Below, one piece after another: positions 10,089 through 46,016 of a DNA stretch of 64,000 nt (its first letter is position 1; the number at the start of each line of letters is the position of its first letter). The stretch spans positions 2,882 through 66,881 of the forward strand of contig JBDRLG010000126.1 of the NCBI GenBank assembly GCA_043813255.1, written 5' to 3'. The DNA comes from Candidatus Omnitrophota bacterium (GTDB lineage: Bacteria; Omnitrophota; Gorgyraeia; Gygaellales; Profunditerraquicolaceae). The notes beneath the pieces are model-generated. The model was not told where the DNA came from. It ran no database searches and saw only the letters and a program-made list of their open reading frames with translations. The translations under genes and the position numbers were made by a program.

Positions 10089-10125
10089 GCTAATCCCCTT
10101 TTTTGTCCTAAATGTATATTTGGTT

Positions 10126-20316: not shown

Positions 20317-20337
20317 TATTTTTACCGTATTATTTAA

Positions 20338-21324
20338 TTAAAGAAGGTTGATTTTTATTATATTAAGGATAGTATCCAGGTTAAATTGAAATAAATAATT
20401 AAGTTCGATAAAAGATGCGCACCAGCATTCTTTGCAAGTAATATAATTTAATTTGTCAAAAGAATTTTTAAAACCAAGTTCTATAACATTAGGAACGTTC
20501 TTAGAAATTATAAAATTTCGGCCACAACCATACATATCTCCATTTGGTTGCAGCCGGCATATAATTAAGCTATTCACGCATTTGATTTTTGTAGGATTCG
20601 GCCAATTATAAAGATATTTTAATCCTGTAATAGAATTAACTATATAGTTATTCTTTTTTTTCTCTAAAATAAGATTATTAATTGTTCTTTTGTAGTCAGT
20701 TTCTTCAGAAATAACCGGATTCATTTCTAATCCTGCAAGTGTACGTAATCTCGCGGGTTGGAAACTAACAGGAATTTTAAACTCTTTTGCTTTATTTAAA
20801 ATAAATTCAATTTTATCAAGATTAAATTTAGATAAAACAGTATTAAACCTGAGTTTTAGTTTTTTCTTCTTAGCTATTTCTACGGCTTCCATTATATTAT
20901 TGTACGAGCCGTTTCCTCGTATAAAATCATGAATTTTCTCCGGCCCATCAAAACTTAAAGTTAATAGATCAAGTCCGGTTAGTTGGTTAATTTTTTCTTT
21001 TACGAGTGAACCGTTAGAATTTATGTCGATTACCACATTATTTTTTTTTGCATGTTCAATGATTGTTCCTATATCATCTCTTAAAAGGGGATTTCCTCCT
21101 GTGAGATGCAGTACCTGTGTACCCGACTGTTTCATCTCAGTTATTAAAGATAAAATTTTCTCTGTTTCCATTTCAGTCGTTTTCATTTTCCAGCTATCGC
21201 AATATAAACACCTTTGATTGCATCTATATGTCAGCAACCAGCTAACAATTACGGGAGATCTCTTCTTTAATAAATTTGCTTCTAATAGTTTAAATGCTAT
21301 TGATATTTTTTTAGTTGTTTTCAT
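20338..21324 (-). CDS. Radical SAM protein with SPASM/twitch domain (member of 4-paralog family)
   Basis: 328 aa. LLTYRCNQRCLYCDSW is followed by a C-terminal Cys cluster CVNSLIICRLQPNGDMYGC...CKECWC. It is paralogous to 24603, 42527 and 46017 (shared LTGGNPLLRDDIG / SFDGPE..HDFIRG blocks). Confidence 0.85.
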   Translation of the reverse strand: MKTTKKISIAFKLLEANLLKKRSPVIVSWLLTYRCNQRCLYCDSWKMKTTEMETEKILSLITEMKQSGTQVLHLTGGNPLLRDDIGTIIEHAKKNNVVIDINSNGSLVKEKINQLTGLDLLTLSFDGPEKIHDFIRGNGSYNNIMEAVEIAKKKKLKLRFNTVLSKFNLDKIEFILNKAKEFKIPVSFQPARLRTLAGLEMNPVISEETDYKRTINNLILEKKKNNYIVNSITGLKYLYNWPNPTKIKCVNSLIICRLQPNGDMYGCGRNFIISKNVPNVIELGFKNSFDKLNYITCKECWCASFIELNYLFQFNLDTILNIIKINLL

Positions 21325-24602: not shown

Positions 24603-25598
24603 TTATGTTCTTCTATAAATTTGTTTTAATGAATTAAATATAGAATCAAATTTAAAGCTGTAAAGAAAATTGAGCTCTATCTGAGCCGCGATCCAGCAAT
24701 TTAAACAGCTATAAGGTTCTAAACTTAAAAAAGCATTTTTGATTCCTTGATGAGAAATATTAATATCTTTTTTATTGGTCTCATCACCGCAACTTTTTAT
24801 AAATCCGTTATTTTCTATTCTGCAATAAATTTTTCCTGCGGCGCATGGTATTTTTGTCGGTTCTGGCCAGTTTAAAAAATGTTTTAAACAAAGTAAGGAA
24901 TTTCCTATGTATGGATGTTTATTTAATTTATAATTAATTAAAGATTGAATAATTTTTTGGTAATTATTTCTTTTATTTAATAATATTTGATTGGTTCTCC
25001 CGCTGCCACGGTTTAATATCCTCGCGGGTTGAAATACAGTAGCAATTTCAAGTTTTTTTGCCAGTTTTAAAATAAATTCTATAAAATCAAGATTAATTTC
25101 TGATAATACTGATGTGAATTTTATTTCCCATCCTTTGTTTTTTGCTATTTTTATTGCTTCCATAGTGTTTTTGTAAGCTCCTTTCCCTCTTATGCTGTCA
25201 TGAACATCGGGTGGGCCGTCTAATGAAAGGACAATCCTGTCTAAACCGGTTATTTGTTTTGCCCTGTCTGATAACAGATATCCACTGGTATTAATACTGA
25301 CATAAATATTCTTTTCTTTGCAATAATTTAGGATTATCCCTATATCATTTCTTAACATGGGTTCTCCGCCTGTAAAATTTATAATCTTTGTTCCCGCCTT
25401 TGTAAGCTGGTCTATAAAGGAGAGAACAGCTTTGGTGTCTAAATCCTTAGTAGGAACTTCATTTACTCCGCAGTAAAGGCAATTATAATTGCAATGATAT
25501 GTTATAGCCCAGCTGACAAAAAAGGGGATTCTTTTTTGTAATAATTTAGTTTTGATAAACAAGTCATATCCGGCTTTTAAAATATCAAATTTTTTCAT
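24603..25598 (-). CDS. Radical SAM protein with SPASM/twitch domain (paralog family)
   Basis: 331 aa. ITYHCNYNCLYCG is followed by the C-terminal Cys set CAAGKIYCRIENNGFIKSC...CLNC. It is directly adjacent to the DegT aminotransferase. Confidence 0.85.
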   Translation of the reverse strand: MKKFDILKAGYDLFIKTKLLQKRIPFFVSWAITYHCNYNCLYCGVNEVPTKDLDTKAVLSFIDQLTKAGTKIINFTGGEPMLRNDIGIILNYCKEKNIYVSINTSGYLLSDRAKQITGLDRIVLSLDGPPDVHDSIRGKGAYKNTMEAIKIAKNKGWEIKFTSVLSEINLDFIEFILKLAKKLEIATVFQPARILNRGSGRTNQILLNKRNNYQKIIQSLINYKLNKHPYIGNSLLCLKHFLNWPEPTKIPCAAGKIYCRIENNGFIKSCGDETNKKDINISHQGIKNAFLSLEPYSCLNCWIAAQIELNFLYSFKFDSIFNSLKQIYRRT

Positions 25599-25607
25599 TA
25601 ATGATAA

Positions 25608-27092
25608 CTATTGTTTTGTTTGTTCTGGAAGCATAGCTTCGCAAATGGTATTAGCAGCATTTAATGCTATTAAGTAATAGCCTTTGGCATTACAATGTCC
25701 ATCAGGAATAAAATATTCACTGTAATGGCCGTATTTTAAAGCATCCTTAAATATTATCAAATTATCTATGAATAGAATGTCGCTATATTCCGCGCACATT
25801 TTTTTAATCCCCTCTATATCTGAAAGAGGGTAAGACATTAATAGCAGGGGTATATGTTTATTGTTTGTAATTTTATAAATAATATCGATATTACTGCGAA
25901 GAACTTTATTATTTGTATTTTGGATTTTCTGGATTTCTTCAAAATATTGTTTAGCCTGAGGGTACCTGTTTTGTTTTTTATAACAATTAACTAACTGCAG
26001 GTACGCAAAATCATTTTCCGGATTTAATTTTATCACATCTTTATATAAATTTTCTGCTTTTACATATTGTTTTGTTTCCATATATATATCTGCCAATTCA
26101 ACCCATGCTTTTTCTGCTGAAGGAGTAGATTCTAAATATTTCTTATAGCATATTTCTGCTTCATTATATTTTTTTTGGCATTTGTAACATCTTCCCAGAT
26201 TTTTATAAATTGTAATAGATTTTGGATAAAACGCCAGTACTTTTTTATAATATTCTTCAGCCCGGGAATAATTTTTTAAAAATACATAACAATCTCCTGT
26301 CATGCTATAAGCTTTCTTGGCATAAATTAAATTCAGGTTTGTTGCAGCAGTATACATTTTTATAGCTTTTAAATATTCACTATGGTGCCTGTATAAATCT
26401 CCTAAATTCATATAATCATTGGCATCTTTTGGACCTTTTTTAGATATTATTTTCATGCCTGGTTCTTCTTTAGAAGTATTCTCTTTTATTGTATCAGTTT
26501 TATGGGGAATTAAAGTAATACTTGTTTTTTTTGTTTTTAATTCATCTGTTTCGGTTTTTTTGTTCACAAAATTTGTCCATAACCATTTCGCTAGTTTATA
26601 TATTCTCATTTTAAATAAATAAAACCGTATTTTATTTATCGAAAAATATTTAGAAGATAATGAAGTATATTCACTTGTATTTGCCCATTCGTATTCATGT
26701 TGTCTTAGTAATAGAATTATCATGTCCGGAGAATATTCTTTAATAGCATTAATTATTGAATTTGGCAGTTCTGGAGAAGAATAGCCTCCGGGAATCCCTT
26801 TATTAATAATTTTAAAACTTTTTCCCGGGTATTTTTTATTTAATATCTTTTCAAGCTGGCTGGGATAATCTTTGCCTATAGGAGCTCCTACTCCATATGT
26901 AAAAGAATCTCCCAGACATAATATGCGGTATGCAGAAGTATCGGAGACTTTATTTTTGTATGATTGTACTTGTAAAAGAATATAACCTATTGTTCGTAAT
27001 CCAAATTCCAAAATAAATAAACTTAGTATTAATCCGAATAGGAATAAAACTATTTTTTCTTTATTTGATGTAAAAACCTTCTTTTTAGCCAA
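25608..27092 (-). CDS. SGNH/GDSL hydrolase-fold protein with embedded TPR repeats, membrane-anchored
   Basis: 494 aa. The N-terminal TM anchor is followed by GDSL block I (ILCLGDSFTYGVG). Several TPR-like repeats are inserted in the middle (YMNLGDLYRHH..., YKNLGRCYKCQKKYNEAE...). The C-terminal DGHCNAKGY matches the catalytic DxxH block. Confidence 0.55.
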   Translation of the reverse strand: MAKKKVFTSNKEKIVLFLFGLILSLFILEFGLRTIGYILLQVQSYKNKVSDTSAYRILCLGDSFTYGVGAPIGKDYPSQLEKILNKKYPGKSFKIINKGIPGGYSSPELPNSIINAIKEYSPDMIILLLRQHEYEWANTSEYTSLSSKYFSINKIRFYLFKMRIYKLAKWLWTNFVNKKTETDELKTKKTSITLIPHKTDTIKENTSKEEPGMKIISKKGPKDANDYMNLGDLYRHHSEYLKAIKMYTAATNLNLIYAKKAYSMTGDCYVFLKNYSRAEEYYKKVLAFYPKSITIYKNLGRCYKCQKKYNEAEICYKKYLESTPSAEKAWVELADIYMETKQYVKAENLYKDVIKLNPENDFAYLQLVNCYKKQNRYPQAKQYFEEIQKIQNTNNKVLRSNIDIIYKITNNKHIPLLLMSYPLSDIEGIKKMCAEYSDILFIDNLIIFKDALKYGHYSEYFIPDGHCNAKGYYLIALNAANTICEAMLPEQTKQ

Positions 27093-29152
27093 AATATGCC
27101 TCCTAAGGAACAGATTAGAATTATAAGAGAGATCCCCGCGCCTAACTTAAAAGAAAAAGGCGAATAGATAAAATTAACAGTATATTGTCCGGGTTTATCT
27201 ATATAAACAGCCCTGAAAAAATAATTAGCACGGTAAATCTCGGTGCGTTTATCGTTTATATAAGCTTTCCAGCCGGGATAATGTGTGTCTGAAAGTACTA
27301 AGAATCCTTTAGAATTAGTTTTTAAACTGATTGATACTTTGCCGGGCTGGTATTTAGTGATATACGTATCAGATTTTAATTCAAGGGAAATATCTACCGG
27401 ATTTAATCCGGTGATTTTTTTCTCTAATATAACCGTCTTTTTAAGGTCAAAAGCTTTATCTTTTAAAGTATCCAATATTTGCTGTTTATCTTTTATAAAC
27501 ATGGCTTGATTAACAAAGAATACTCTCTGTAAGCTGTTTTTAAATTGGTAGCATGCAATTATATTGTCTTCGTATATTTTTTCAAATAAAGGACTGTTTT
27601 CATAATAATTTTCTATTTCTGGAAGTATTTTTTTATTTTCTTCATCTTCCTCTTCTGGCTTATTTAATATCACATATTTAGTGCCGCTGGCTTTTAAGTA
27701 ATTAGGGTATAAAAGGAAATTATAATACGCCTCTTCTTTAATTAAGGATATATTCAGGTTTGTTTTAGTAAATTCAAGATAACGTAAAAGTATTAAATTG
27801 CTTTGTCCGCTTGAGAAATAAGATTTCCCTTTGATAAAATATGTGTACTCAGAGTTTAGAAAAATTCGGCTCCTATCTTTAATTTCTAGTTTATCTAGTA
27901 ATTTATTGACACTTAAGTAAATTTGAAGGTCATTATTATTGTTATATGAATCCTTATATTTCTCTGAATAATTTTTTTGCCATGACAAAGAGATTGAAAA
28001 CAAAACCAATGTCAATAAAATTAATTTTATTATTTTAAACTTTATTTTTTCAATTCCGAATCCGGATAGTAGCGCTATAGAAAAAATAAAAATGTAGCTG
28101 GCGCGGATAGGCTTTTTAAAAAAAGAGAAAAAAGGCAGGTTTAAATACAGATAATTTGTTATAAAGTTCCGGCTGCTTAAAACAAGAAAAAGAATTGTGA
28201 TACATAAGTAGAAGTAATAATATTTAGGCTTATGCTTATTGAATAACGGAAAAAATGCCAGTAAAACCGCTGTTAAGCCGATAAATATATCCGGTTTATC
28301 GGTATTTAAAAAAATTATGGCCTTTAGGTATTCTATATTTAAATAATTAGAGTTATACATTAAATTATAATCTTTAATATAATATCTGGCTGAATTTTGG
28401 GCTAATTCCATTGTAGGTAAAAACTGGATTGAAAATATCCCTATGGAAATCAATATGATGAGAATAAAGGCAAAAAGTAGATTCCTTATAGTATAAAAAT
28501 TCTTAGTATCTTTCATGATAAAAAAAGATTTTAAAATAAAATAAGCTGTAAATAACAGAAAAAAATAATAAGAATATTGAATCCCGCCGCCTAATAATTG
28601 CATGCCATAAAAAATTCCTGTTAAGATTGCATATTTCCAGTTGATTAGTTTATTTAATGCTTTATTAAGAAAGAATAAAATCAAAGGAAACCAAATATAA
28701 GTATTAAGTATATTTGGTTCATATAGTCTGATCATCGCGAATATTATGCCTGCCGTCAAAGCGCCGGTTATTTTTATATTAATACTGCGGGCATATATAT
28801 ACATAAAGAATCCCGCAGTTAAGAAATAAAAGATATACATAAAATTGCTTACGGCAATATTTGACAGCGGAGTGTAGAACGGTATATAGATTCTTAAAAG
28901 AGTAAACGGAGATAATAAATTATAATAGTCCATATCGGCGAATAAAGGGCACCCGCAGGAAAAATAAGGGTTCCATAAAAAATATGCGGATTTTATAAAG
29001 GAAGAAACTATGTGGGAATGTACAAAAAAAACATCTGCCGGAAGATTATCAGCAAAATATTTAGCTTTGAATATAATATCTTTGAATAAAAAAATAGATA
29101 CCGCTATAAAAAGCAAAAAAATCAGAAGTTTTTTGAAGTATTTATAAAGCAT
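27050..29152 (-). CDS. YfhO-family GT-C membrane glycosyltransferase (paralog 1 of 3 in tandem array)
   Basis: 700 aa with about 13 TM helices. The C-terminal periplasmic domain carries LVLSDTHYPGWKAYINDKRTEIYRANYFFRAVYI, the YfhO C-terminal signature. That terminus is nearly identical at DNA level to 33107-33700. Confidence 0.7.
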   Translation of the reverse strand: MLYKYFKKLLIFLLFIAVSIFLFKDIIFKAKYFADNLPADVFFVHSHIVSSFIKSAYFLWNPYFSCGCPLFADMDYYNLLSPFTLLRIYIPFYTPLSNIAVSNFMYIFYFLTAGFFMYIYARSINIKITGALTAGIIFAMIRLYEPNILNTYIWFPLILFFLNKALNKLINWKYAILTGIFYGMQLLGGGIQYSYYFFLLFTAYFILKSFFIMKDTKNFYTIRNLLFAFILIILISIGIFSIQFLPTMELAQNSARYYIKDYNLMYNSNYLNIEYLKAIIFLNTDKPDIFIGLTAVLLAFFPLFNKHKPKYYYFYLCITILFLVLSSRNFITNYLYLNLPFFSFFKKPIRASYIFIFSIALLSGFGIEKIKFKIIKLILLTLVLFSISLSWQKNYSEKYKDSYNNNNDLQIYLSVNKLLDKLEIKDRSRIFLNSEYTYFIKGKSYFSSGQSNLILLRYLEFTKTNLNISLIKEEAYYNFLLYPNYLKASGTKYVILNKPEEEDEENKKILPEIENYYENSPLFEKIYEDNIIACYQFKNSLQRVFFVNQAMFIKDKQQILDTLKDKAFDLKKTVILEKKITGLNPVDISLELKSDTYITKYQPGKVSISLKTNSKGFLVLSDTHYPGWKAYINDKRTEIYRANYFFRAVYIDKPGQYTVNFIYSPFSFKLGAGISLIILICSLGGIFWLKRRFLHQIKKK

Positions 29153-31023
29153 TATTTCATAAAAACTTTATGCCATGTTAAAAATGTATATATTGTCCAT
29201 AGCTTACGGCTGTTGTCGAATTTATTGTTAAGGTGGTCTTTTATTAATTGCTTGATATAATAAGGGTTAAAATATTTTGTTTTAATAGTATTTTGTTCCG
29301 ATAACACATCTAATATTATATTTTTCTTTTTCTGCCTTATCCAGATTTTATCCGGGCTGCTTAAGCCATGTTTGGATTTTTTAAGTATTTTTTGAGGTAA
29401 TTTTCCCCGCATCGCTTTTCTTAATATATATTTTGTTTTAAAGTTCTTAATTTTCATTTCCGCGGGAATCGCTGCCGCAAACTCCACTAAATCTGAATCT
29501 AAATACGGAGTTCTTACTCTAAAAGAATTCATTTTGTTTAATGAGTTTTCAAAAAATAATATATTATCAGCCAGGTTAATTTTTAAGTCATTATGCAAAG
29601 CAGCATCCAGCCCGTAATTGTTTTTAAATTTATTTTCAGCTATTTTATTTTTATAATTTAAAAAAGAATCTTTAAATATCCTGTCTTCCAATAAGGTATT
29701 TTTTAAAAGTTCTTTCTTGTCTTCTTCCGTGAATATTTCTCTCCAATGGTAATGCACCCTTTCCGCAGGAAGAGTTGAGCCGTAAATAAAGTCACGGATT
29801 TTATAATTAAGGCTGATCGGTTTATAAGAATCAGGTATTAATTGTGTTAAAGGAGAAACAATGTATTTTTTTAAAAAATCAGGTATATTTTTATAAAGCG
29901 GAATCAGGATATCTGCCAGATGAGTAAGATATCCTGCGAAAAGTTCATCTCCTCCTTCCCCTGAAAAAGATATGTCCACCTCTCTGCTTGTATAATTGAC
30001 TAGAAAATAATAAGGAATAATCGTAGATTCAGAAATGATATCTCCTAAATTCCAAATAATATCCTCATAGGAACTAAGCGGATTATCCGGCAATATGTAA
30101 TGACGATGTTTGGTATTATAATGTTTGGAGACAATTCCTGCATATTTTGTTTCATCGTAATATTTTTCTTTAAATCCGATACTAAAAGTATTTATTTGAG
30201 ATTTATACATTTCAGCTATGGTATGAGCGATACTGCTTGAATCTAATCCTCCGCTTAAAAAAAGGCCCCAAGGGCGGCTGTTGGGCAGCCTTCTCTTTAC
30301 AGCTTTGCATATTAAATCCAGCGAATTTTCTATGTAATATTCTTCTGAAAATGTTTTATTCTGATAATTAAAGTTATTCTGCCAGTATTCTTTTGTCTGT
30401 ACGCCGGCATTCGATATGGTTGCTAAATATCCTGGAGGAAGTTTATTGATATTATTAAATATTGTTTTAGGAGAAGGTACATAACCGAAAGATAAATAAT
30501 CATAAAAACTATTGACGTCCATTGTTTTTGAGTATTCTTTGTCTTGTAAGATGGCTTTTATATCAGAAGAAAAAATAATGCTGTTTTTACAGACAGCATA
30601 ATAAATTTGTTTTACTCCCAGTTTATCCCGGACCAAAGTTAAAATTCTCTTGTTATTATCCCAGATAGCCAGGGAAAATATGCCGTCTAATTTATTGAAA
30701 TTTTCAGTCCCTTCTTCATATAAATGTATAATAATTTCCATATCTGAGAAACTTTTAAAAGTATGGCCTTTTTTAACAAGGTTTTCTTTCAGCTCAGCAT
30801 GGTTGTAAATTTCACCTTCAGCGGCTAAATAAACAGAATTATTTTCATTATGTAAAAGTTCAGCGTTAATAGAATTGTATAAGCATAAGCCGATATTATT
30901 TTTAACAAGGACGTTTCTATCATGGTAACTATTTTTCAATTTTAATTTTTCAGACATATCTAAAAAAGATTCTTTGACAAGTTTTTGTTTAGGATCAAGG
31001 TTATATTTTCCATAAATCAGCAT
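29152..31023 (-). CDS. Asparagine synthetase B-family amidotransferase lacking the N-terminal catalytic cysteine
   Basis: 623 aa. The synthetase-domain PP-loop is FLSGGLDSSSIA. The glutaminase-domain blocks AAEGEIYNHAELKENL and LDGIFSLAIWD..LVRDKLGVKQIYYA are present. However the N-terminus is MLIYGKY rather than MCG(I), with a GGAGA RBS 8 nt upstream of this ATG, so the class-II GATase nucleophile Cys is absent. Confidence 0.8.
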   Translation of the reverse strand: MLIYGKYNLDPKQKLVKESFLDMSEKLKLKNSYHDRNVLVKNNIGLCLYNSINAELLHNENNSVYLAAEGEIYNHAELKENLVKKGHTFKSFSDMEIIIHLYEEGTENFNKLDGIFSLAIWDNNKRILTLVRDKLGVKQIYYAVCKNSIIFSSDIKAILQDKEYSKTMDVNSFYDYLSFGYVPSPKTIFNNINKLPPGYLATISNAGVQTKEYWQNNFNYQNKTFSEEYYIENSLDLICKAVKRRLPNSRPWGLFLSGGLDSSSIAHTIAEMYKSQINTFSIGFKEKYYDETKYAGIVSKHYNTKHRHYILPDNPLSSYEDIIWNLGDIISESTIIPYYFLVNYTSREVDISFSGEGGDELFAGYLTHLADILIPLYKNIPDFLKKYIVSPLTQLIPDSYKPISLNYKIRDFIYGSTLPAERVHYHWREIFTEEDKKELLKNTLLEDRIFKDSFLNYKNKIAENKFKNNYGLDAALHNDLKINLADNILFFENSLNKMNSFRVRTPYLDSDLVEFAAAIPAEMKIKNFKTKYILRKAMRGKLPQKILKKSKHGLSSPDKIWIRQKKKNIILDVLSEQNTIKTKYFNPYYIKQLIKDHLNNKFDNSRKLWTIYTFLTWHKVFMK

Positions 31024-33131
31024 AATTTATTCTCCAATTTGGTTTTATTTTTAAGATAAAGGATACTTATTATACAACAAATTAGGGTTATAATAGAAAT
31101 AATAGCACCTAGTTTAAAAGCAAAAGGCGAATAGATAAAGCTAATAGTATATTCACCGGGTTTGTCTATATAAATAGCCCTGAAAAGATAGTTAGCCCGG
31201 TAAATCTCGGCTTGTTTATTGTTTACATAGGTTTTCCATCCGGGATAATAAGTATCTGAGAGCACCAAAAATCCCCTGGAGTTGGTTTTAAGGCTGATTG
31301 ATATTTTGCCGGGCTGGTAATCAGTAATCTGTGTATTGGATTCTAATTTAAGAGAGGTATCTTTTTGACTTAATCCAGAAATTTCTTTTTCCAATATAAC
31401 TGTTTCTTTGGGGTTAAAAGCTTTATCTTTAAAAGTATCCAGTATTTCCTGCTTATTTTTTATAAATAAGACTTGATTAACAAAGAATGCTCTTTGCATG
31501 CTGTCTCTGAATTGATAGCCAATGATTGCAGCATCTTCATATATTTTCTTAAATAACCGGTTGTTATCATAATAATTTATTATTTTCAGCAGTATCTGCT
31601 TGTTTTCATTATCCTCTTCTTCTGTTTTATTTAATACTATATATTTGGTATTACTAGCTTTTAAATAATTAGGATACAAAAGAAAATCATAATATAAGTT
31701 ATCTTGTATTTTATCAATATTGATGATAGAAGTCTTACTGAATTCAATATTCCTGGCGGGAATAAGATCACTTTGTCCTCCTAAAAAATAAGGGATATGA
31801 TTTAATAAATAAATACTTTTTTCATCAAAATCCAGATATACCCTGTATTTGTCTATGTCTGGAATGTCTTTTAATAAATTGTTAATATCATCGTAAAAAA
31901 TAAAAGAATCTTCAGATTGAGATTTAGAATATAAGGATGAAAATTCTGTTGAATGGAATATATTCCAAGCATAATAAATAGATATAATAACCGAAAGAAA
32001 TAATATCAATTTTATTATTTTATTCCTGATATTTTGTAGTCCTATCCCTGCCATAATTGAGACAGAAAAAATAAAAAATAAAGTAGACCTTATTGGAGAA
32101 ATAAAAAATGAGAAAGAAGGCAGATGGTTATATAAGAACCTGGTTAATATACTGGGAATGCTGATAAAAATAAAAAATATCGCAATTGAAAGATAAAAAT
32201 AATAGAATTTATTTTTATTTTTGTGTAATAATGGAGTTAAAGCAAGAATAATAGTAGGAATACCGGTAAAACTGAACATTTCACCTTTTCTTCCAGAGAA
32301 AAATATTTTTGATAAATTATTTAGTGTTTCTTGACTGTAACTTATATTAAAATCTTTTAAATAAAATCTAACTGAATGTATTGTTAATTCTATTGTGGGT
32401 AAAAGCTGAATAGCGGCTATACTTATGCCAGTTAAGAAAATAGTCAAAAATAAGAAACAAGATTGTTTTAAGTATGTCATATTTAAAGGAATATTCTTGA
32501 ATTTTGAAAAATATCTGAAAATAAAATATAGTATAAAAAATACAGAAAAATAATATGAATATTGCGGCAGACTAGTTGCAATTAAAATGCCGTATAATAA
32601 ACCCGTAATTATGCCATATTTCCAGTTTATTTTTTTCTCTGCTATGGATTTTTCAAACATAAAAAGAATGATAGGTATATAAATATATCCATTAACTGAA
32701 GGAATTTTATATCTGCGTATAATACCGAAAATAACAGCACTAAGGAAAGCGGATAATTTATTCAAACCTATATTTTTAGCATATAAATACATAAAAAGGC
32801 AGCATAGCGGATAAGAAATAATATAAGCTAAATTAAATGCTATGAAAGTAAATGAAGGGAAAAAATGTTGTATAAATACTCTTAAGATCGTAAAAGGACT
32901 TAATAAACAATAACATATATCAGCAAATAAAGGAAAACCGCAAAAATAATAAGGATTCCATAAAAAAAATGAATGTTTTATTAGAATTAAAGGGATATAA
33001 CAATGTGCATAAGGATCTGCGCTTGGCATAAGATTCCTATATAGCATGCTTTTTGACAGAATATCTTTAAATATAAAAATGCCAATAATGAAAAAAAACA
33101 GAAATATCAGCCAGTTTTCTTTTTTAGCCAA
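31017..33131 (-). CDS. YfhO-family GT-C membrane glycosyltransferase (paralog 2)
   Basis: 704 aa. The C-terminus reads LVLSDTYYPGWKTYVNNKQAEIYRANYLFRAIYI. The N-terminal WNPYYFCGFPLFAD block is shared with the other YfhO paralogs. Confidence 0.7.
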   Translation of the reverse strand: MAKKENWLIFLFFFIIGIFIFKDILSKSMLYRNLMPSADPYAHCYIPLILIKHSFFLWNPYYFCGFPLFADICYCLLSPFTILRVFIQHFFPSFTFIAFNLAYIISYPLCCLFMYLYAKNIGLNKLSAFLSAVIFGIIRRYKIPSVNGYIYIPIILFMFEKSIAEKKINWKYGIITGLLYGILIATSLPQYSYYFSVFFILYFIFRYFSKFKNIPLNMTYLKQSCFLFLTIFLTGISIAAIQLLPTIELTIHSVRFYLKDFNISYSQETLNNLSKIFFSGRKGEMFSFTGIPTIILALTPLLHKNKNKFYYFYLSIAIFFIFISIPSILTRFLYNHLPSFSFFISPIRSTLFFIFSVSIMAGIGLQNIRNKIIKLILFLSVIISIYYAWNIFHSTEFSSLYSKSQSEDSFIFYDDINNLLKDIPDIDKYRVYLDFDEKSIYLLNHIPYFLGGQSDLIPARNIEFSKTSIINIDKIQDNLYYDFLLYPNYLKASNTKYIVLNKTEEEDNENKQILLKIINYYDNNRLFKKIYEDAAIIGYQFRDSMQRAFFVNQVLFIKNKQEILDTFKDKAFNPKETVILEKEISGLSQKDTSLKLESNTQITDYQPGKISISLKTNSRGFLVLSDTYYPGWKTYVNNKQAEIYRANYLFRAIYIDKPGEYTISFIYSPFAFKLGAIISIITLICCIISILYLKNKTKLENKLC

Positions 33132-35188
33132 AATATGCCTCCTAAGGAACAGATTAGAGTTATAAGAGATATCCCTGCGCCTAATTTAAAAGAAAAAGGC
33201 GAATAAATGAAATTAACAGTATATTCGCCGGGTTTATCAATGTAAACAGCCCTAAAGAGATAATTAGCGCGGTAAATTTCAGCGGCGTTACCGTTTATAT
33301 AAGCCTTCCAGCCGGGATAATAGGTATCGGAAAGCACAAGAAAGCCTTTAGAGTTGGTTTTAAGGTTAATTGATACTTTTCCGGGTTGATAATCAGTAAT
33401 ATATGTTTTAGATTCTAATTTAAAAGGATTGTTTATTGAATTCAATCCGGCGGGTATTTGCTTTTCCAGTATAACTGCTTCTTTGGGTTCAAACATATTG
33501 TCTTTTAGAGTATCTAGTATTTGCTGTTTGTCTTTTATAAGTACAGCTTTATTGACAAGCACTACCCTTGCCATGCTGTCTTTAAAAGAATATCCTTTGA
33601 TTAAATTATCTTCATATATTTTTTCAAATAAAGGACTGTTTTCATAATAATTTTCTATCTTTGGTGTCATTCCTTCATTTTTCGCGTTCCCTTCTTCTAT
33701 TTTATCAAATATTATATATTTAGTGCCGCTAACTTTTAAGTAATTAGGGTATAACAGAAAATTATAATAAGCATATGCTCTCAATTTATCAATATTGCAA
33801 GTATTGGTTTTACTGAATTCCAGATAATGAGAAAGAACTAAATCACTAGAACCGCAAGAAAGATAAAATTTATATTTGGCCCAATTAACATCGTCTTGAT
33901 TTATAAATATCCTATAGTTCGTCAGAATCGGCTCTACAGTGTATAATTTTTTACTAAGTGCCTGATATCGTTTTTGGTTTGCGGAAAATTCAGTTATTTT
34001 ATTATAATGCCTGTCATATATACCGATTTTCCAAAAAGGATATATTTGCAATAAAAAAATGAATAATAGTAATATTTTTAAAGAAGTTGATTTTAATTTT
34101 TCTATCCCTGCCCCTGCTAAGATAGCAACTGAAAAAATACAAATATAGAATGCCCGTAAGTGTTTTTGTAAAAAGTTAAATGCCGGCAGATGATAGTATA
34201 AAAATTGAGAGACCGGGTGTTTACTGCTGATAATAAAAAAAATAAAGATAATAGACAGATAAAAGTAATAATAAGGAGTCTTTTTTCTGTAAAACACAGG
34301 TATTAAAGATAACATAATAGTCATTATTCCTAAGAAAACACGTGATCGGGAATAGTCAAATAATATTATGCTTTTTAAATAATCAAGGTTTAAATACTGG
34401 TAAGCATAGGATAAGTTGAATTTATTTAAATAAAACCGGGAAGATTCTTTTGCCAGTTCAATTGTCGGCAGTATTTGTACTGCGCTTATGCCAAACCCAA
34501 TAATAAAAATAAGAAAAAGCTTCAATATCTTTAGGTCAATTTTTTTAAATTGTAAGTAGAACCTGAAGATAAAATAAATACAGAGAAAAATTGAAAAATA
34601 ATATAATTCTTGTGTGGCTCCGCTTAAAAATTGCAAGGCATAAAAAATACCGGCTAAAATAATGTAATAAGTATTAAGGCATGTTTTTTGGAAAGACTTT
34701 TCGATGAAAAACAATATTATGCCGACCCAAACCCGTGCGGCAAATTCATGTGTCCCGCCTGCATCGGTACAGAAAAAAATATTATAAGTATAGATTAAAC
34801 CGCTTAATACAGCCCCTATCTTTCCTATGTTTATAGCTCTGGCATATAAATAAAGAAAGAATCCCGCTAGAGAAAAATGTAAAATATATATAAAATTAAA
34901 AGCAATAAAATTAGGTATATGAAATAGATATTGCAGAAGGAATATTAAAATCGTAAAGATATTTAAGAAATGTTTTCTATTAATTTCAGCTAAGTGAGGA
35001 AATCCGCAATATATATAAGGGTTCCAGAGTAAAGAACCTTGTTCTTCTAATTCGACTATAGTTCTTGGATAAATATAGTTTTTTTGTGAATTATTATTAA
35101 GGGTAATAAAAAAATCCTTATTAAAGAATATTACTGATATTAATACGAAAAATATAAAAATTAATATATTTTGATGAAGATTTTTCAT
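33107..35188 (-). CDS. YfhO-family GT-C membrane glycosyltransferase (paralog 3)
   Basis: The C-terminus LVLSDTYYPGWKAYINGNAAEIYRANYLFRAVYI is about 85-90% identical to the 27050 paralog. I chose the start at MKNLHQNILIF (35188) because the track start 35269 would overlap the carbamoyltransferase by 85 nt. Confidence 0.7.
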   Translation of the reverse strand: MKNLHQNILIFIFFVLISVIFFNKDFFITLNNNSQKNYIYPRTIVELEEQGSLLWNPYIYCGFPHLAEINRKHFLNIFTILIFLLQYLFHIPNFIAFNFIYILHFSLAGFFLYLYARAINIGKIGAVLSGLIYTYNIFFCTDAGGTHEFAARVWVGIILFFIEKSFQKTCLNTYYIILAGIFYALQFLSGATQELYYFSIFLCIYFIFRFYLQFKKIDLKILKLFLIFIIGFGISAVQILPTIELAKESSRFYLNKFNLSYAYQYLNLDYLKSIILFDYSRSRVFLGIMTIMLSLIPVFYRKKTPYYYFYLSIIFIFFIISSKHPVSQFLYYHLPAFNFLQKHLRAFYICIFSVAILAGAGIEKLKSTSLKILLLFIFLLQIYPFWKIGIYDRHYNKITEFSANQKRYQALSKKLYTVEPILTNYRIFINQDDVNWAKYKFYLSCGSSDLVLSHYLEFSKTNTCNIDKLRAYAYYNFLLYPNYLKVSGTKYIIFDKIEEGNAKNEGMTPKIENYYENSPLFEKIYEDNLIKGYSFKDSMARVVLVNKAVLIKDKQQILDTLKDNMFEPKEAVILEKQIPAGLNSINNPFKLESKTYITDYQPGKVSINLKTNSKGFLVLSDTYYPGWKAYINGNAAEIYRANYLFRAVYIDKPGEYTVNFIYSPFSFKLGAGISLITLICSLGGIFWLKKKTG

Positions 35189-36885
35189 TTTTTTAGCATG
35201 TAATTTCCTAATACTAATATATCTATCCGGCTGTTTAAATAACAGTTTATCGCATCTGCCGGCGAACAAACAATGGGCTCATCGCCTCTGTTAAAAGAAG
35301 TATTTAATACCATAGGAATTCCTGTTAAACGGTAAAATTCATTAATCAATTTCCGGAATTTAGGGTTGTTTTGTTCATCGATGCATTGAACTCTAATAGA
35401 GTTATCTATGTGGATAACTGCCGGAATCTTTCTTTTCTTTGTTTTACATACTTTGTAAACAAATTGCATATATGGAGAACCGGAAGGACTGTTAAAATAT
35501 TCCTGAAGGTATTCTGATAATATAGTTACCGCGAAGGGATTAAATTCTCTGCGGTTTTTTATCTCTAACAGAACATTTTTTAAATGCAGGTTTCCGGGAT
35601 GGGCTAATATGCTTCTATTGCCCAGTGCCCGCGGGCCAAACTCCATCCTTTCCTGAAACCAGCCTATGATTTTATTCAAAGATAATAATTCAGCCGTTGT
35701 TTTTTCAATGTTTTTACAATATGTATAATTTAATCCGGATGAATTTATGGCTTTTTGTATCTCTATATCAGCGTAATCCGGTCCGAGAAAGTCTGTTTGA
35801 GGCAGAAGTATTCTTTTTGCAGAAGTTTTTTTATAATAGTAATACAGAGCTCCTCCTATAGAACAGCCTGCATCTGAAGGGTTCGGCTGAATATATATAT
35901 TCTTAAAAGGGGTATTTTCTTTCAATTTGCCATTCATAACAGCATTCAGCATTATCCCACCGGAAAGACATAAATTATCAATTTTAGTTTCTTGGTAAAA
36001 ATAATTAGTCATATATAGAACAATGTCCTCTAGCCTCTTTTGTAAACTCGCGGCGATATTATATTCTTTTGTTGTTATTGGTGTATTATTGATTCTGGGA
36101 TAACCAAAAATTCCGGTGAGTTTTTTAGAAGAAAAGGTTGTTTTATTGGGATAATTTAACCGGCCGTTTTTATAATCGAAGTAATCCAAATCTAAATAAA
36201 ACCCTCCCTTGGAAGATAATCTAATGATTTTTTTAAATTCATTATAATATTCAGGCTGCCCAAAGGCAGCTAATGCCATAATTTTAGATTCATCTTTTCC
36301 CGGCCGAAAACCTAAAAATGAGGTAAAAAGGGAATATACAAAACCTAAAGAATGCGGCACCCGTATTCTTTTCCAAGGGAATATTTTATTATCTTTGCCT
36401 ATCCATAATCCGCAGGAGTCTAATTCCCCGCGTCCATCAAGAGTAACTATGTTGGCTTTTTTATAGGGAGATTGAAAAAACGCGCCAGCGGCATGCGCTA
36501 TATGATGTTCTACGCAGGCAAATTCGCTTTTTGTCGCCAAAGATAAAAGATTATTGAAACGGCGTTTTATTTTTAAACTATTATGCTTAAATTCATCCCG
36601 GTTATTAAGATAAAAAAATATTGAATCAGGAAATAATCGTAATCCAAGGTAAATTTTTGCTAAAGTATTAAGCCATATACTATAGGGATAGATAATAAAG
36701 TCTATTTCGGATGGGGCTATCCCGCTTTTTTTAAAACAAAATTCAACGGACTTTTCCGGAAAAATATCAGTATATTTTATTCTGTTTAATCGTTCTTCCT
36801 GTACCGCGGCTAATATTCGGCCGTCTGAAATAATTGCGGCGGCAGAAGGCAATTCACTTTCAAAGATGATACCTAATATATTCAT
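35185..36885 (-). CDS. NodU/CmcH/TobZ-family O-carbamoyltransferase
   Basis: 566 aa. The N-terminal ASKHA-like motif is MNILGI...AAIISDGRILAAVQEERLNRIKYT. Also present: HHIAHAAGAFFQSPYKKANIVTLDGRGE. The C-terminus has a YrdC-like domain. Confidence 0.85.
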   Translation of the reverse strand: MNILGIIFESELPSAAAIISDGRILAAVQEERLNRIKYTDIFPEKSVEFCFKKSGIAPSEIDFIIYPYSIWLNTLAKIYLGLRLFPDSIFFYLNNRDEFKHNSLKIKRRFNNLLSLATKSEFACVEHHIAHAAGAFFQSPYKKANIVTLDGRGELDSCGLWIGKDNKIFPWKRIRVPHSLGFVYSLFTSFLGFRPGKDESKIMALAAFGQPEYYNEFKKIIRLSSKGGFYLDLDYFDYKNGRLNYPNKTTFSSKKLTGIFGYPRINNTPITTKEYNIAASLQKRLEDIVLYMTNYFYQETKIDNLCLSGGIMLNAVMNGKLKENTPFKNIYIQPNPSDAGCSIGGALYYYYKKTSAKRILLPQTDFLGPDYADIEIQKAINSSGLNYTYCKNIEKTTAELLSLNKIIGWFQERMEFGPRALGNRSILAHPGNLHLKNVLLEIKNRREFNPFAVTILSEYLQEYFNSPSGSPYMQFVYKVCKTKKRKIPAVIHIDNSIRVQCIDEQNNPKFRKLINEFYRLTGIPMVLNTSFNRGDEPIVCSPADAINCYLNSRIDILVLGNYMLKK

Positions 36886-37083
36886 TTTAATTTTTTTTAA
36901 AATTCAGCAGAATTAAGCCATTTTTATTTGCTATATTATCAATTTCATCCTTATGCTTTTTTTATTGGACCCTATATCTAAATCTGAATGCCCAGCATAT
37001 TTTTAAAAAATAAAAATAATAACTGTTTTTATTATAAAGGCATTTTTTCATAGTGGATAAGTACTTTATCTCTTATAAATATA

Positions 37084-38970
37084 TTATTTGTTATTTAGTA
37101 CTAAGTATACATATATAGCAATAATTCCTAATAGACTGCCTATTAATCCAATTAATAAATTATGCGGGAAATAAGTTAATTTTATTAATCCAGCTGTTTT
37201 TTTATCCATATCAATAGATAGTAATCCGGTATAATTACCTATTTTTCCTTTATTGCTTTTCCATCCGGTATGATAATTTTGGTTAATAATCAATTTATCA
37301 GGGGTGGTTATTTTAGTATCTATAATTATTTTATTGGGGCTAAAATATAATAGATTAGCTTGGTTTTGTTCTTGTAGAAAGTATATTTCACCTTTATATT
37401 GAGAGTTAATTTTTAATTCAGGCATTATTTTATTGAAATCCATGATATGGTTAAAGACGGTATCGGCCTGTTGCTTGTTAATAAAATACTTTGGGAGAGT
37501 ATAGTGGTCTATGTCTATTGTTGGATAGAAATTAACTATCCCTATATTTTGTTGAAATAACGGATAAAACCAAAAGTCATCATTTTGCTTTTTATTTAAA
37601 TGATTGATCTCGTCCGGCCTTTTATAAAATTCTATTTGGAAAAAATCAGCATTATTTGTTTTATATATCTTTTCTTTTGGTAAATAACTGATTCTATTAA
37701 GGATTGAATAACTTAGTCTGCTTACTTCATAAATGGAGATTATTGCAAGTAGGATAAATATATATTTTAAAATATTTGTTTTTTTGATTTTATCGGTTAA
37801 TGAAAAACTTTGCCCGGCAATAAGAGCTATAAGGAAAAAAATATAAGGTAAAAAATATTTATCCGGTTTTACTATGCCGCGTGTAAAATTATTAATATTC
37901 CATAAAGGTTTATATATATCTATTAAACTATTGGGCCCGAACATTAAAATAGTAAAAAACAATAAAAGGATAAAATAGATGATACTTCTTTTAAAGTAAG
38001 TCAATAATGACACGAACAATAAAAAAATAGTTATATAGCCAAAATATATAGACAGGTATTCCGGTTGGATGTTTTTCTTAAATAAGCTATCGTATAATTT
38101 TTTTACAGTAAAACATCTTTCTGGAAGTGTCTCTTCTATCCTTCCTTCTTTATCTATTGCGGTTATCCCGTAAGATTTCTCTACTTCAGGAGAATTATGG
38201 AAATATTGATAATTTCTGGAATGTAATAAATCAATCATGGGGATAATTTTAATACTGCTTATTAATAGAGAAAATATTATTAATAAGATAAACTTTTTGA
38301 AATATCTATAGTTTAAAAATGAGCTATCCGTATGAGTAAAATTAAATGTTTTTAAAACTACAAATAGCAGGATAAATAAACATACGATAATAAAATTTAG
38401 GCCGGCGGACAATATATAAAAACTTAAAAAAATTGAAGCAAGCGGCAGATATTTAGGCCTTGAAAATGATTTAATAAAAAAAGAGATAAGAAATGGTAAA
38501 AAACAAATAGATAAATAATATATGTCACTGTCAATTATTCTATAAGCGAACCAGGGGCAAATTATAAATAAAACGGAAGAATAAATAGCTCCCAAATAAT
38601 TATATTTAAGTAAGTTTTTTGTTAAATAAAACATTCCAAGGGCTCCGATTAGAAGATAAGCTATTACAATCAATTTCACCCCGATAATTTCTTTAAATAA
38701 TCCTATGAATATGCCAAATGGATTTAAATTCCAGCCTTCAATGTCTCCTATGACTGGATATCCTCCTGAAAAAAGATAGGTTCTAAAAGGGAGTTGATGA
38801 AAATTTGATAGTGATTGGCTTAGTGGGATTGCTAAAGTATAATAGCGTCCCCATCCTTGTAGAGGTTGTTCGATATTTCTAATAAGCGGGAAATAAGTGA
38901 ATATTAATATAGTTATTAAGAGTAAATAACTTATCGTGTTAATTTTAGTTATATGTAGTTTTTTTAACAT
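37084..38970 (-). CDS. YfhO-like GT-C polytopic membrane protein (paralog pair A)
   Basis: 628 aa, polytopic. The C-terminus LIINQNYHTGWKSNKGKIGNY resembles the YfhO C-terminal motif. It is paralogous to 38945-40906, sharing YHQLPLRT...SGGYP near the N-terminus. Confidence 0.55.
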   Translation of the reverse strand: MLKKLHITKINTISYLLLITILIFTYFPLIRNIEQPLQGWGRYYTLAIPLSQSLSNFHQLPFRTYLFSGGYPVIGDIEGWNLNPFGIFIGLFKEIIGVKLIVIAYLLIGALGMFYLTKNLLKYNYLGAIYSSVLFIICPWFAYRIIDSDIYYLSICFLPFLISFFIKSFSRPKYLPLASIFLSFYILSAGLNFIIVCLFILLFVVLKTFNFTHTDSSFLNYRYFKKFILLIIFSLLISSIKIIPMIDLLHSRNYQYFHNSPEVEKSYGITAIDKEGRIEETLPERCFTVKKLYDSLFKKNIQPEYLSIYFGYITIFLLFVSLLTYFKRSIIYFILLLFFTILMFGPNSLIDIYKPLWNINNFTRGIVKPDKYFLPYIFFLIALIAGQSFSLTDKIKKTNILKYIFILLAIISIYEVSRLSYSILNRISYLPKEKIYKTNNADFFQIEFYKRPDEINHLNKKQNDDFWFYPLFQQNIGIVNFYPTIDIDHYTLPKYFINKQQADTVFNHIMDFNKIMPELKINSQYKGEIYFLQEQNQANLLYFSPNKIIIDTKITTPDKLIINQNYHTGWKSNKGKIGNYTGLLSIDMDKKTAGLIKLTYFPHNLLIGLIGSLLGIIAIYVYLVLNNK

Positions 38971-40906
38971 TGATTAAATAGATTATTAAAGCTGTTATGC
39001 TGAATATACTTATCCATAGTCCCACAAAAAAATCTAAAGGCTTATATTTTAGGTTTATTATATAACTACCGGTAATATTTAATTTGATTCCTAATAGTCC
39101 TTGATAATTGAATATTTCCCCATTATCTGTTTTCCAGCTTTTATGGTAATTTTGGTTTATAATTAAAGTATCAGGCTGTTTAAGAGTTATTTTTATTTTT
39201 ATATCGTTAGGACTAAAATATAAAAGTTCTGTTTTATTTTTCTGGTTAAGAGTATATATCTCTCCTTTATATGCAGGATTAATTGTCCCGGATAGAGTTA
39301 AATCAACAGATTCATTTTTTGGTAAATCATAAAAATTTTCAACGTAAACACATTCTTTTTTTAATCCGCCCGTTTTAATAAAGTATTTAGGTACAGCGTA
39401 TTCCCCGATATTTATTATTCCATGTTGTATAAAATTTACCAATCCTATATTTTGATTTAATAATATCCAAAAAGGCTGATATGAACGAATGTCTTTAAAT
39501 CCATTATAACCGGGCAGATCTCTTGGTTCTTCTTTTTTAAAGATTTCAGCCTGGAAAAAAGAAGGATATTTCTTGCATATAGGGATTTTTTCATAGACTA
39601 AGTCACGGAATAATAACCTGCTATGGTAAAATATATTAGTTATGCCGGCTATAAGCGTTAATAGTATTAAAAATTTAATAAATTTTTGTTTTATATGCAG
39701 TTCATTTAAAAAATTTCCCGAAATAATGGATATTAAAAATGGGGGAAAAAAACCAAAATATTTATTAAGTCTCCACATGCTGTAATCAAATGGTATCAAT
39801 CGCGATAAGTATTTAAATAAGTCAATAGGGCTGTTTGGTCCAAATTGTATAAGCAGGAATATAAAAAAAATAACAACATAATTCAACACGCGTTTTGAAT
39901 AAAAAATAGAAATAATAAAAATCAATAAAGGTATATAACCTAAATACATTGTTGAATACCCTCTAAAATTAGGATCAAGCAAAGAATCTTTTAATTGAGA
40001 AAGATTTAAGCAGGCCCCAAAGCCTTTAATAGAAGCAGAAATAAAGGTGTATGAATCTTTATATGGAGTGATATCAGAGGGAATTTTTTGAGAAAACAGC
40101 TGTAAAAAAGGCAATGTTTTAACAGAGCTGACTAATAGTGAACAAATAACAGTTATAAAAAAAATAGAAATATAAAAAAAACTTATATTGATTTTTCGCT
40201 TATTAGTTATTGTTATGATATTTAAACAAGAAAAAAGAAATAAAAATAGTAAAATGGGAAATAATATTAAAGGGTTAGAAAGAAAAATTAAGCTTAACGT
40301 TAGAACTAAATATATTATGGATTTTTTATCAGTCTTACATTTTATAAAAAAAGCCATCAGCCAAGGTAGTAAATAAAAAAACAATTTTTCTAAATTACCA
40401 TCAATAGCTTCGTATGCTCCCCAATTGCATAGAATGAATAATAAACTTGAAAACATCGTGCTTATAAGAGAATATTTTAAGACGTGTCTAGTTAGATAAA
40501 ACATGCCTGACGCGCCGATAATAAATATCAGGAAGGCCATAAGCCTTATCCCTGTTATTTCTCCAAATAACAGAATTAAAATAAAAAAAGGGGTCAGGCA
40601 AAAATTAGATGGATGTGCGATAAAAGGATATCCACCGCTTAAATATGGTGTTCGTAGCGGTAATTGATGGTATTCTAATATAGTTGTTTTAGAAAGTGCC
40701 GCGTAATAATAATTTCTCCACCAGTCGTTTTCATTTATGGTTGTGTTAGGAATATTCTTCAGAAGAGGCAGATAAAACATGGCTGTAATAATAATAATAA
40801 GTAAAATGCAGAGCAGTTCTTTTTTTGAAGACAAAAAATTTTTAGGTCCTTTGTCCTGATAATAATTTTGGCAGCTATTTATTAAGCTTGTTTTGTTTAT
40901 TGCCAT
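38945..40906 (-). CDS. YfhO-like GT-C polytopic membrane protein (paralog pair B)
   Basis: 653 aa. The C-terminus LIINQNYHKSWKTDNGEIFNY is paralogous to the 37084 gene. Confidence 0.55.
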   Translation of the reverse strand: MAINKTSLINSCQNYYQDKGPKNFLSSKKELLCILLIIIITAMFYLPLLKNIPNTTINENDWWRNYYYAALSKTTILEYHQLPLRTPYLSGGYPFIAHPSNFCLTPFFILILLFGEITGIRLMAFLIFIIGASGMFYLTRHVLKYSLISTMFSSLLFILCNWGAYEAIDGNLEKLFFYLLPWLMAFFIKCKTDKKSIIYLVLTLSLIFLSNPLILFPILLFLFLFSCLNIITITNKRKINISFFYISIFFITVICSLLVSSVKTLPFLQLFSQKIPSDITPYKDSYTFISASIKGFGACLNLSQLKDSLLDPNFRGYSTMYLGYIPLLIFIISIFYSKRVLNYVVIFFIFLLIQFGPNSPIDLFKYLSRLIPFDYSMWRLNKYFGFFPPFLISIISGNFLNELHIKQKFIKFLILLTLIAGITNIFYHSRLLFRDLVYEKIPICKKYPSFFQAEIFKKEEPRDLPGYNGFKDIRSYQPFWILLNQNIGLVNFIQHGIINIGEYAVPKYFIKTGGLKKECVYVENFYDLPKNESVDLTLSGTINPAYKGEIYTLNQKNKTELLYFSPNDIKIKITLKQPDTLIINQNYHKSWKTDNGEIFNYQGLLGIKLNITGSYIINLKYKPLDFFVGLWISIFSITALIIYLINVKKTTYN

Positions 40907-40914
40907 ATAATTCC

Positions 40915-46015: not shown

Positions 46016-46016
46016 T

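Follow-up and report, generated by a model that had tools for sequence, protein, structure and literature searches.

Why are three adjacent genes for related membrane proteins most alike at their 3′ ends and far less alike over the rest of their length? The question is raised by a 64,000-nucleotide (nt) stretch of contig JBDRLG010000126.1 (the whole stretch is called the window here), whose host is a Candidatus Omnitrophota metagenome-assembled genome (MAG), and in which the initial annotation had recognized three tandem paralogs of the YfhO family. That description is borne out by three open reading frames (ORFs) on the same strand, A and C by their matches to PF09586 and B by homology. Taken as a whole, the evidence below makes it probable that A, B and C are ancient GT-C glycosyltransferase paralogs whose last quarter has been homogenized by old gene conversion. 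The three genes are as follows.

27050..29152, minus strand: paralog A, 700 amino acids (aa), an A-type YfhO-family GT-C glycosyltransferase (ORF, PF09586, AlphaFold2 (AF2) model, ortholog P0002)
31017..33131, minus strand: paralog B, 704 aa, with a TTG start (ORF, homology to A and C)
33107..35188, minus strand: paralog C, 693 aa, C-type (ORF, PF09586, NCBI P0003, ortholog P0004)

The similarity of the three proteins is far beyond chance, as BLASTP aligns them over their full length at 45–48% aa identity with E values from 3e-174 to 0; the middle copy, B, is homologous throughout to both of its neighbours (48% aa identity to A, 45% to C), as had been proposed. Against PF09586, A scores 70.1 bits and C 51.4 bits (cutoff 28.5), mostly over the C-terminal 80–140 residues of the profile. 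B matched no Pfam or NCBIfam family at E ≤ 0.001 or 0.01, no NCBIfam model matched A, B or C, and a sequence search of the PDB with A returned no match. A joint profile of five close relatives, which retrieved 41,858 proteins at E ≤ 1e-3 from a representative library, also ties B to the family, and the homologs found in protein searches were almost all PF09586-positive. A and C carry the NCBI name ‘YfhO family protein’, and the entry for B, identical in protein and in its 704-aa length, reads ‘hypothetical protein ABIH18_06930’; although so labelled, B is a YfhO-type gene and its annotation should be corrected. Two start codons also needed attention. Rather than the TTG at 35269 (720 aa), the most likely start of C is the ATG at 35188 (693 aa), which NCBI also uses and which makes C overlap its upstream neighbour by 4 nt. 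The NCBI start of A (P0001, 627 aa) is probably 73 codons too far downstream, a 700-aa form that begins at the ATG at 29152 being supported by alignment with B, C, P0002 and P0004 and by the first membrane helix.

Identities by region, taken from a codon-aware alignment, change sharply along the genes. The first ~470 codons, which encode the N-terminal membrane domains, are 51–56% identical in DNA and 36–40% in protein, in line with the earlier observation that these domains differ, and the last ~230 codons are 72.5–76% identical in DNA and 65–72% in protein among A, B and C. The limits of the similar 3′ parts are these.

27053..27742, minus strand: 3′ part of A, codons 471–700, from sliding identities (the by-genome signal described below is clearest over codons ~541–700, 27053–27532)
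31017..31721, minus strand: 3′ part of B, the shared module, from A–B similarity, with an approximate 5′ limit
33107..33799, minus strand: 3′ part of C, the shared module, closer to A than to P0004, with an approximate 5′ limit

Over the C-terminal ~200 codons the measured DNA identities were 77.2% (A–C), 76.7% (A–B) and 73.9% (B–C), well short of the 85–90% first estimated. The description of the 3′ ends as near-identical holds for the terminal ~110 nt of A and C only; elsewhere it fails, and the end of B differs, its last ~45 nt being shared with neither A nor C (48% identity to A in the last 45-nt bin). The example given for it, 27081–27190 against 33121–33230, is indeed 92% identical, once shifted by 1 nt (27081–27190 against 33120–33229), and the 29-mer quoted with it is present at 27091 and 33130. 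The best 300 nt shared by A and C reach 84% (27082–27381 against 33121–33420). In the 3′ part of B, A and B share 66–68% of residues and 72–82% of nucleotides, compared with 40% of residues in the N-part. The longest exact runs in common are 44 nt for A–C (27573/33615) and 18 nt for A–B; a 25-nt exact run between B and C is the physical overlap of the two genes at 33107–33131, not a repeat.

To which genes each part is most closely related was judged against a related Logan contig, L001, the sole syntenic comparator, the other relatives being single genes and a handful in number. L001 carries a C-type gene (P0004, 698 aa), an AsnB gene, an A-type gene (P0002, 700 aa) and an SGNH/TPR gene, in the same order as in the window, where the two non-YfhO genes are as follows.

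29152..31023, minus strand: AsnB-like amidotransferase, 623 aa, between the C-type and A-type genes (Asn_synthase, GATase_7, TIGR01536)
25608..27092, minus strand: SGNH(GDSL)/TPR protein, 494 aa, the 3′ neighbour of A (TPR families and Lipase_GDSL_2)

The AsnB-like protein is 66% identical to the product of the L001 gene at the same position (L001 8127–10004), and the SGNH/TPR protein is 48% identical to its L001 counterpart, which likewise overlaps its A-type gene; flanking orthologs in general show 48–66% aa identity between window and L001. The AsnB-like gene had been taken for an insertion into the array; since it lies between C-type and A-type genes in L001 too, we regard AsnB as part of a conserved core and correct the annotation to a conserved cassette in which B, which lacks an ortholog at the corresponding point of L001, is the additional gene.

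Against this background, the two parts of each gene have different nearest relatives, which upholds the suggestion of gene conversion made in the initial annotation. In neighbour-joining (NJ) trees of the N-part, A groups with P0002 and C with P0004, each at 99–100% bootstrap, whereas codons 541–700 of A, B and C form a clade of their own, with support of 92.5%, 96% and 99% across varied sets of relatives (11 to 12 sequences per tree). P0002 matches A at 62% of the first 470 residues, and P0004 matches C at 59–62%, values comparable with those of the flanking genes, as vertical descent predicts; among themselves the three paralogs are 35–40% identical there. Over codons 541–700, paralogs are 73–75% (A–C), 67–68% (A–B) and 68–69% (B–C) identical in protein, compared with 54% for A–P0002 and 49–51% for C–P0004; the whole 3′ part of C is 72–75% identical to A and only 51–53% to its own ortholog. 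3′ parts that are closer within a genome than to their own orthologs are the signature of segmental gene conversion, or concerted evolution. A maximum-chi-square breakpoint falls between residues 507 and 578 of A (chi-square 71, a value reached by 0 of 2,000 permutations), and informative aa sites in quartets divide 78 to 2 in favour of orthology before it and 0 to 9 in favour of grouping by genome after it. The N-part of B branches outside the (A, P0002) pair, so that B is an older A-like duplicate and not a fresh copy. In the tree of the 3′ part the (A, B, C) clade adjoins P0002, the A-type ortholog, at a node without bootstrap support, which hints that an A-type gene may have been the donor of the shared part.

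The exchange also left traces at the level of DNA. Where A and C have the same residue, they use the same codon in 81% of cases over codons 471–540 and in 65% over codons 541–700, against an expected 43–52%, and in 46%, the chance level, in the N-part; over codons 541–700 A–C and A–B stand at 65–66% (P from 4e-5 to 2e-6, A–C codons 471–540 included). For A–C and B–C the excess of shared codons is confined to the 3′ part (P from 2e-3 to 2e-6). In that part, non-synonymous divergence (dN) is 0.17–0.23 between paralogs and 0.30–0.37 between orthologs, and synonymous divergence (dS) is 0.96–1.19, the N-parts of A–C and B–C being at saturation. A Sawyer-type test found a run of 14 concordant polymorphic sites between A and C at A residues 678–689, reached by 0 of 5,000 permutations; the runs for A–B (P = 0.32) and B–C (P = 0.13) were not significant. 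Nucleotide quartet sites in codons 470–600 are a mixture. With dS of ~1 in the shared part and a longest exact run of 44 nt, the events cannot be called recent, as they had been: the exchange is old overall, and no fewer than two younger patches are common to A and C, at codons ~505–530 and at the extreme 3′ end. Nothing in the GC content of A, B or C, whether overall or at third codon positions (GC3), points to foreign DNA.

The youngest of the shared tracts contains a translation start, present in both copies.

27078..27121, minus strand: youngest A–C tract, copy in A, with AGGAGG at 27099–27104, a 6-nt spacer and TTG at 27090–27092
33117..33160, minus strand: the same tract, copy in C, with AGGAGG at 33138–33143, a 6-nt spacer and TTG at 33129–33131

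Behind A, the TTG is the start of the SGNH/TPR gene, which overlaps A by 43 nt; it is the first possible start of the ORF 25608–27092, lies upstream of an N-terminal hydrophobic stretch (IVLFLFGLILSLFIL) and has a homologous TTG in L001. Behind C, the TTG is the start codon of B, the only plausible one and the one used by NCBI. B and the SGNH/TPR protein each begin (M)AKK, and the homology between A and C ends ~12 nt past the TTG, with a 1-nt indel in a run of A. A copied A-type end would thus have carried the ribosome-binding site, the TTG and the first four codons of A’s downstream gene to C, where the transferred start site would now initiate B. Given a copied start site together with (M)AKK, DNA copying is an easier explanation than convergence at the protein level.

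What the homogenized piece encodes was read from a structure model made for A only, on which the GT-C fold assignment rests. The AF2 model (predicted local distance difference test score (pLDDT) 84.5, predicted template modelling score (pTM) 0.88) has transmembrane (TM) helices to ~residue 421, a soluble domain at 425–665, divided into an alpha/beta sub-domain (429–565) and a beta-sandwich (573–663), and a C-terminal helix at 666–699. Its top Foldseek matches in the PDB are all GT-C proteins, namely STT3, PglB, AftD, AftA, DPY19 and ArnT (probability 1.0). By this model each paralog would consist of a ~420-aa multi-helix GT-C core, a ~240-aa AftD-like periplasmic domain and a C-terminal anchor helix, and the homogenized piece would be the beta-sandwich half of the periplasmic domain plus the anchor helix. 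The earlier idea of a common periplasmic module at the 3′ end agrees with this, the 3′ part encoding the predicted extracytoplasmic module together with the anchor helix. An LWNP..CG.P motif is invariant across A, B, C, P0002 and P0004. At the family’s first-loop Asp column A has D35, B an N (followed five residues on by a D) and P0004 an E/D; C (residues ~28–45) and its relative P0096 (L004) show no acidic residue, in a region that is poorly aligned and of low pLDDT, which limits how this column can be read; C may be inactive or rely on another residue.

Several other histories could be imagined for such a locus. Were the 3′ third simply the most conserved part of the protein, with no exchange of DNA, the C-terminal ~140 residues would be expected to match the Pfam YfhO profile best, as they do, and motifs such as LSDxYYPGWKA would be conserved family-wide, as they are, along with residues ~460–500 and ~618–657, which are conserved in all comparisons including those between genomes. 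We nevertheless consider constraint alone very unlikely because the 3′ region is not better kept between genomes than the membrane core (54% versus 62% for A–P0002) and because residues 539–617 are 38–42% identical between orthologs but 62–72% identical between the window’s paralogs, a difference for which plain constraint is insufficient; the 92.5–99% support for (A, B, C), the excess of shared codons and the significant run of concordant sites argue in the same direction. A recent tandem duplication after which the membrane domains diverged fast, a possibility that the initial annotation had entertained, would fit the tandem same-strand layout and the synonymous similarity retained by the N-parts of A and B (59% same codon versus 47% expected), but it is highly improbable. 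In their N-parts, A and C are each closer to an ortholog in the other genome than to their neighbours (99–100%), the A and C lineages being older than the split from it, the N-parts of A–C and B–C are saturated at synonymous sites, and B falls outside the (A, P0002) pair. Nor, contrary to what had been thought, is the membrane part diversifying fast: between genomes the N-parts are under purifying selection, with dN of 0.25–0.28, dS above 1.7, dN/dS of ~0.1 and 60–62% aa identity.

The same mosaic trees would also arise in the reverse direction, if the genes had been duplicated more recently within the lineage, the 3′ part being the vertical remnant and the 5′ two-thirds of at least one copy having been replaced, by homologous recombination with foreign DNA, by imported A-type or C-type alleles, and glycan loci are known for cassette exchange. 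This we hold to be rather unlikely, although less so than constraint or recent duplication, because C and A are placed with respect to AsnB and SGNH/TPR just as P0004 and P0002 are in L001, their N-parts have diverged (59–62% aa identity) as the flanking genes have (48–66%), as under vertical descent, and show no anomaly in GC or GC3, and more events would be required. An assembly artefact, with copies created or collapsed by the metagenome assembler, deserves mention since the contig comes from a MAG and assemblers can be misled by repeats, yet it is exceedingly improbable: the copies are 45–48% identical in protein overall and 72–77% in DNA within the similar part, their longest exact runs are 44 nt (A–C) and 18 nt (A–B), the three ORFs are intact with overlapping start/stop junctions, and an independent sample assembles the same order of C-type, AsnB, A-type and SGNH/TPR genes. 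With such identities and exact repeats of at most 44 nt, the region is unlikely to be the misassembly hotspot that had been feared. Unequal crossover was also considered, in a form that would make the unshared 3′ end of B C-type, and was dropped, that end being about equally far from P0002 and P0004 (roughly 55–59% to both over ~50 nt, by eye).

Some points weigh against gene conversion as proposed here, or against the function that we attach to it below. The trees are NJ trees with a simple distance, not maximum-likelihood trees, and they draw on one syntenic comparator genome (L001) and few single-gene relatives, no close strain having been found. Donor direction and the number of events are ones that we infer. 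Synonymous sites approach saturation, which makes the dS values rough; the 3′-part dS of A–P0002 (1.2) is only a little higher than that of A–C (0.96). Third-position quartet sites in the 3′ part are evenly split, 14 for orthology and 14 for grouping by genome, so that the tract is a patchwork and not the product of one clean event. As to the proposed function, different donors and a common acceptor, C, for want of an acidic residue at the family’s conserved first-loop Asp column, may not be catalytic.

A closer relative was sought in several ways. Neither GTDB species genomes nor JGI metagenomes yielded one when scanned with the five-protein alignment; no exact match to the 25-nt junction sequence turned up, and looking up the exact sequences of C (P0003) and B (P0037) led to no contig. 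None of the collections searched held a close strain. Among other relatives, the contigs of P0038, P0097, P0098 and P0099 are each single-copy, with no tandem pair, and in L004 the gene that precedes P0096 is an unrelated one. In a JGI contig, L003 (3300024423, Ga0190286_1000104), no fewer than two YfhO-like genes, of 808 and 759 aa, are interspersed with genes for radical SAM, DegT and LPG_synthase_TM proteins, and P0040 (776 aa) comes from a contig of equal length. Homogenization at the 3′ end is not seen among the three YfhO-like genes of L003 (37–42% versus 26–28%, the C-terminal parts being 37–42% identical in protein); conversion as seen in the window is therefore not general to such arrays.

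The AsnB-like gene of the cassette matches PF00733 (Asn_synthase) at 254 bits, PF13537 (GATase_7) at 107 bits and TIGR01536 at 339.8 bits (cutoff 267.1). Its product begins MLIYGKY (MAIYGKY in the L001 ortholog), with no Cys at position 2, and the amidotransferase match starts only at residue 58, which makes canonical glutamine hydrolysis doubtful. A conserved internal Cys at ~residue 47 (‘GLC’/‘GIC’) could be the nucleophile, by its position, only once a propeptide of ~45 residues had been removed.

The surroundings of the array are those of a surface-glycan locus. The window is AT-rich (29.8% GC), and a single long run of minus-strand genes extends from 14.8 kb to its end. Transcription proceeds from a NodU-type carbamoyltransferase gene through C, B, AsnB-like and A to SGNH/TPR, and all junctions overlap or nearly abut. 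Upstream of C lie the following.

35185..36885, minus strand: NodU/CmcH-type carbamoyltransferase, directly upstream of C (Carbam_trans_N 221 bits, Carbam_trans_C 213 bits)
37084–38970 and 38945–40906, minus strand: two distant membrane paralogs, with a layout as in A, B and C

The latter two proteins are 34% identical to each other, neither has a Pfam match, and hydropathy gives both an N-terminal TM bundle, a soluble part and one C-terminal TM segment. BLASTP to A, B and C found weak C-terminal matches for the 38945–40906 protein only (E from 9e-4 to 3e-7), and hhalign to a profile of A, B and C gave probabilities of 74% and 21%, which establishes no firm tie to the family; the locus may hold five related GT-C genes. 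A homolog occurs in L008 (GCA_040960315.1), two genes upstream of P0099, a member of the A/B/C subfamily. A scan of 25000–41500 for promoters and terminators gave counts no higher than those in shuffles (99 versus 104 and 13 versus 7.9), and such a scan is thus uninformative in AT-rich DNA.

Farther out, the locus contains a Wzm/Wzt ABC exporter pair, a 1296-aa GT2–GT4 protein, further GT2 genes, a YdjC deacetylase, two PMT_2 GT-C proteins, an LPG_synthase_TM protein, a DegT aminotransferase and eight radical SAM genes; A, B and C reside in a large locus for the synthesis and decoration of a surface glycan. Two of the GT2 genes are at 17235–18002, adjoining the YdjC deacetylase gene, and at 51530–52414, adjoining the LPG_synthase_TM gene. 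At 17235–18868 the GT2 gene is followed directly by the gene for the YdjC-family deacetylase, a pair also kept in L001. We take this pairing to resemble the lipid-linked amino sugar systems that serve ArnT-like GT-C enzymes (Francisella/Bordetella type), and the pair could supply the donor to one of the GT-C enzymes of the locus. No GtrA/GtcA-type flippase was found among the 27 window ORFs scanned, the remaining ORFs, some small ones included, being outside the scan. The radical SAM genes lie at 18898–21324, 24603–25598 and 42527–47033, eight in total and two with B12-binding domains; three of them are mutual paralogs (39–44% aa identity to relatives of the L001 copies), and their enrichment alongside DegT and YfhO-like genes recurs in L001 and L003. 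The secretin encoded at 8193–10154, of PilQ/GspD type, ends in a stretch (residues 588–650) that matches a TonB C-terminal domain, an unusual fusion.

Both kinds of phenomenon met here, the YfhO family and gene conversion between paralogs, are already known. A and C belong to the same Pfam family, PF09586, as the YfhO proteins of the CsbB–GtcA–YfhO systems that act on lipoteichoic acid in Bacillus subtilis and Staphylococcus aureus and on wall teichoic acid in Listeria. Like these, they have a GT-C fold with a large extracytoplasmic domain, their locus holds GT2 enzymes that possibly make lipid-linked sugar donors, and by analogy A, B and C would be expected to act on a polymer outside the cytoplasm. 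Unlike typical YfhO proteins, to which they are 17–29% identical, they are ~100 residues shorter (700 versus 750–840 aa), their host is a Candidatus Omnitrophota bacterium and not a Gram-positive with teichoic acids, and three to five copies stand side by side. The mycobacterial arabinofuranosyltransferase AftD (PDB 6wbx/6w98) differs in that its sequence identity is only 11% and that it is twice as long, with extra carbohydrate-binding modules; the Omnitrophota locus shows no evidence of an arabinan or of the acyl carrier protein that AftD binds. A review ascribes to the extracytoplasmic domains of AftD, and possibly to that of S. aureus YfhO, a presumed role in binding the acceptor polymer (PMC8035078).

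In evolutionary terms the nearest parallel is offered by babA/babB and homA/homB of Helicobacter pylori, whose 3′ segments evolve in concert, a pattern that A, B and C share: the 5′ and middle regions of the H. pylori genes group between strains and the 3′ regions within a genome, which is attributed to intragenomic conversion (PMC3960876). The H. pylori events are recent and frequent, both between strains and in vitro, whereas the exchange among A, B and C is old (dS ~1); and the H. pylori paralogs are adhesins or porins at separate loci, whereas A, B and C are adjacent and encode enzymes.

The locus offers a small, clean natural experiment on the roles of domains in GT-C glycosyltransferases: a membrane core and a periplasmic module with different histories fit separable jobs, for example donor binding and catalysis in the one and recognition of acceptor or partner in the other. 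A, B and C may act on the outer face of the inner membrane and transfer different sugars from polyprenyl-phosphate donors, with specificity residing in their distinct membrane cores; the shared periplasmic module may recognize one common exported polymer or partner, and conversion would keep that module matched across all copies. The fuller proposal is of a modular decoration system with a distinct conserved core for each sugar, one lineage-specific acceptor-binding module homogenized by repeated conversion, and a portable start for new paralogs, which we put forward tentatively and think unlikely on balance. Apart from that, the array probably records an ordinary and well-known type of event, an old segmental gene conversion in the surface-glycan locus of an uncultured bacterium. 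If the modular system is real, a change in the exported polymer would be answered by the spread of one adapted module to every decorating enzyme, and the portable translation start would let a new paralog plug in behind a copied module.

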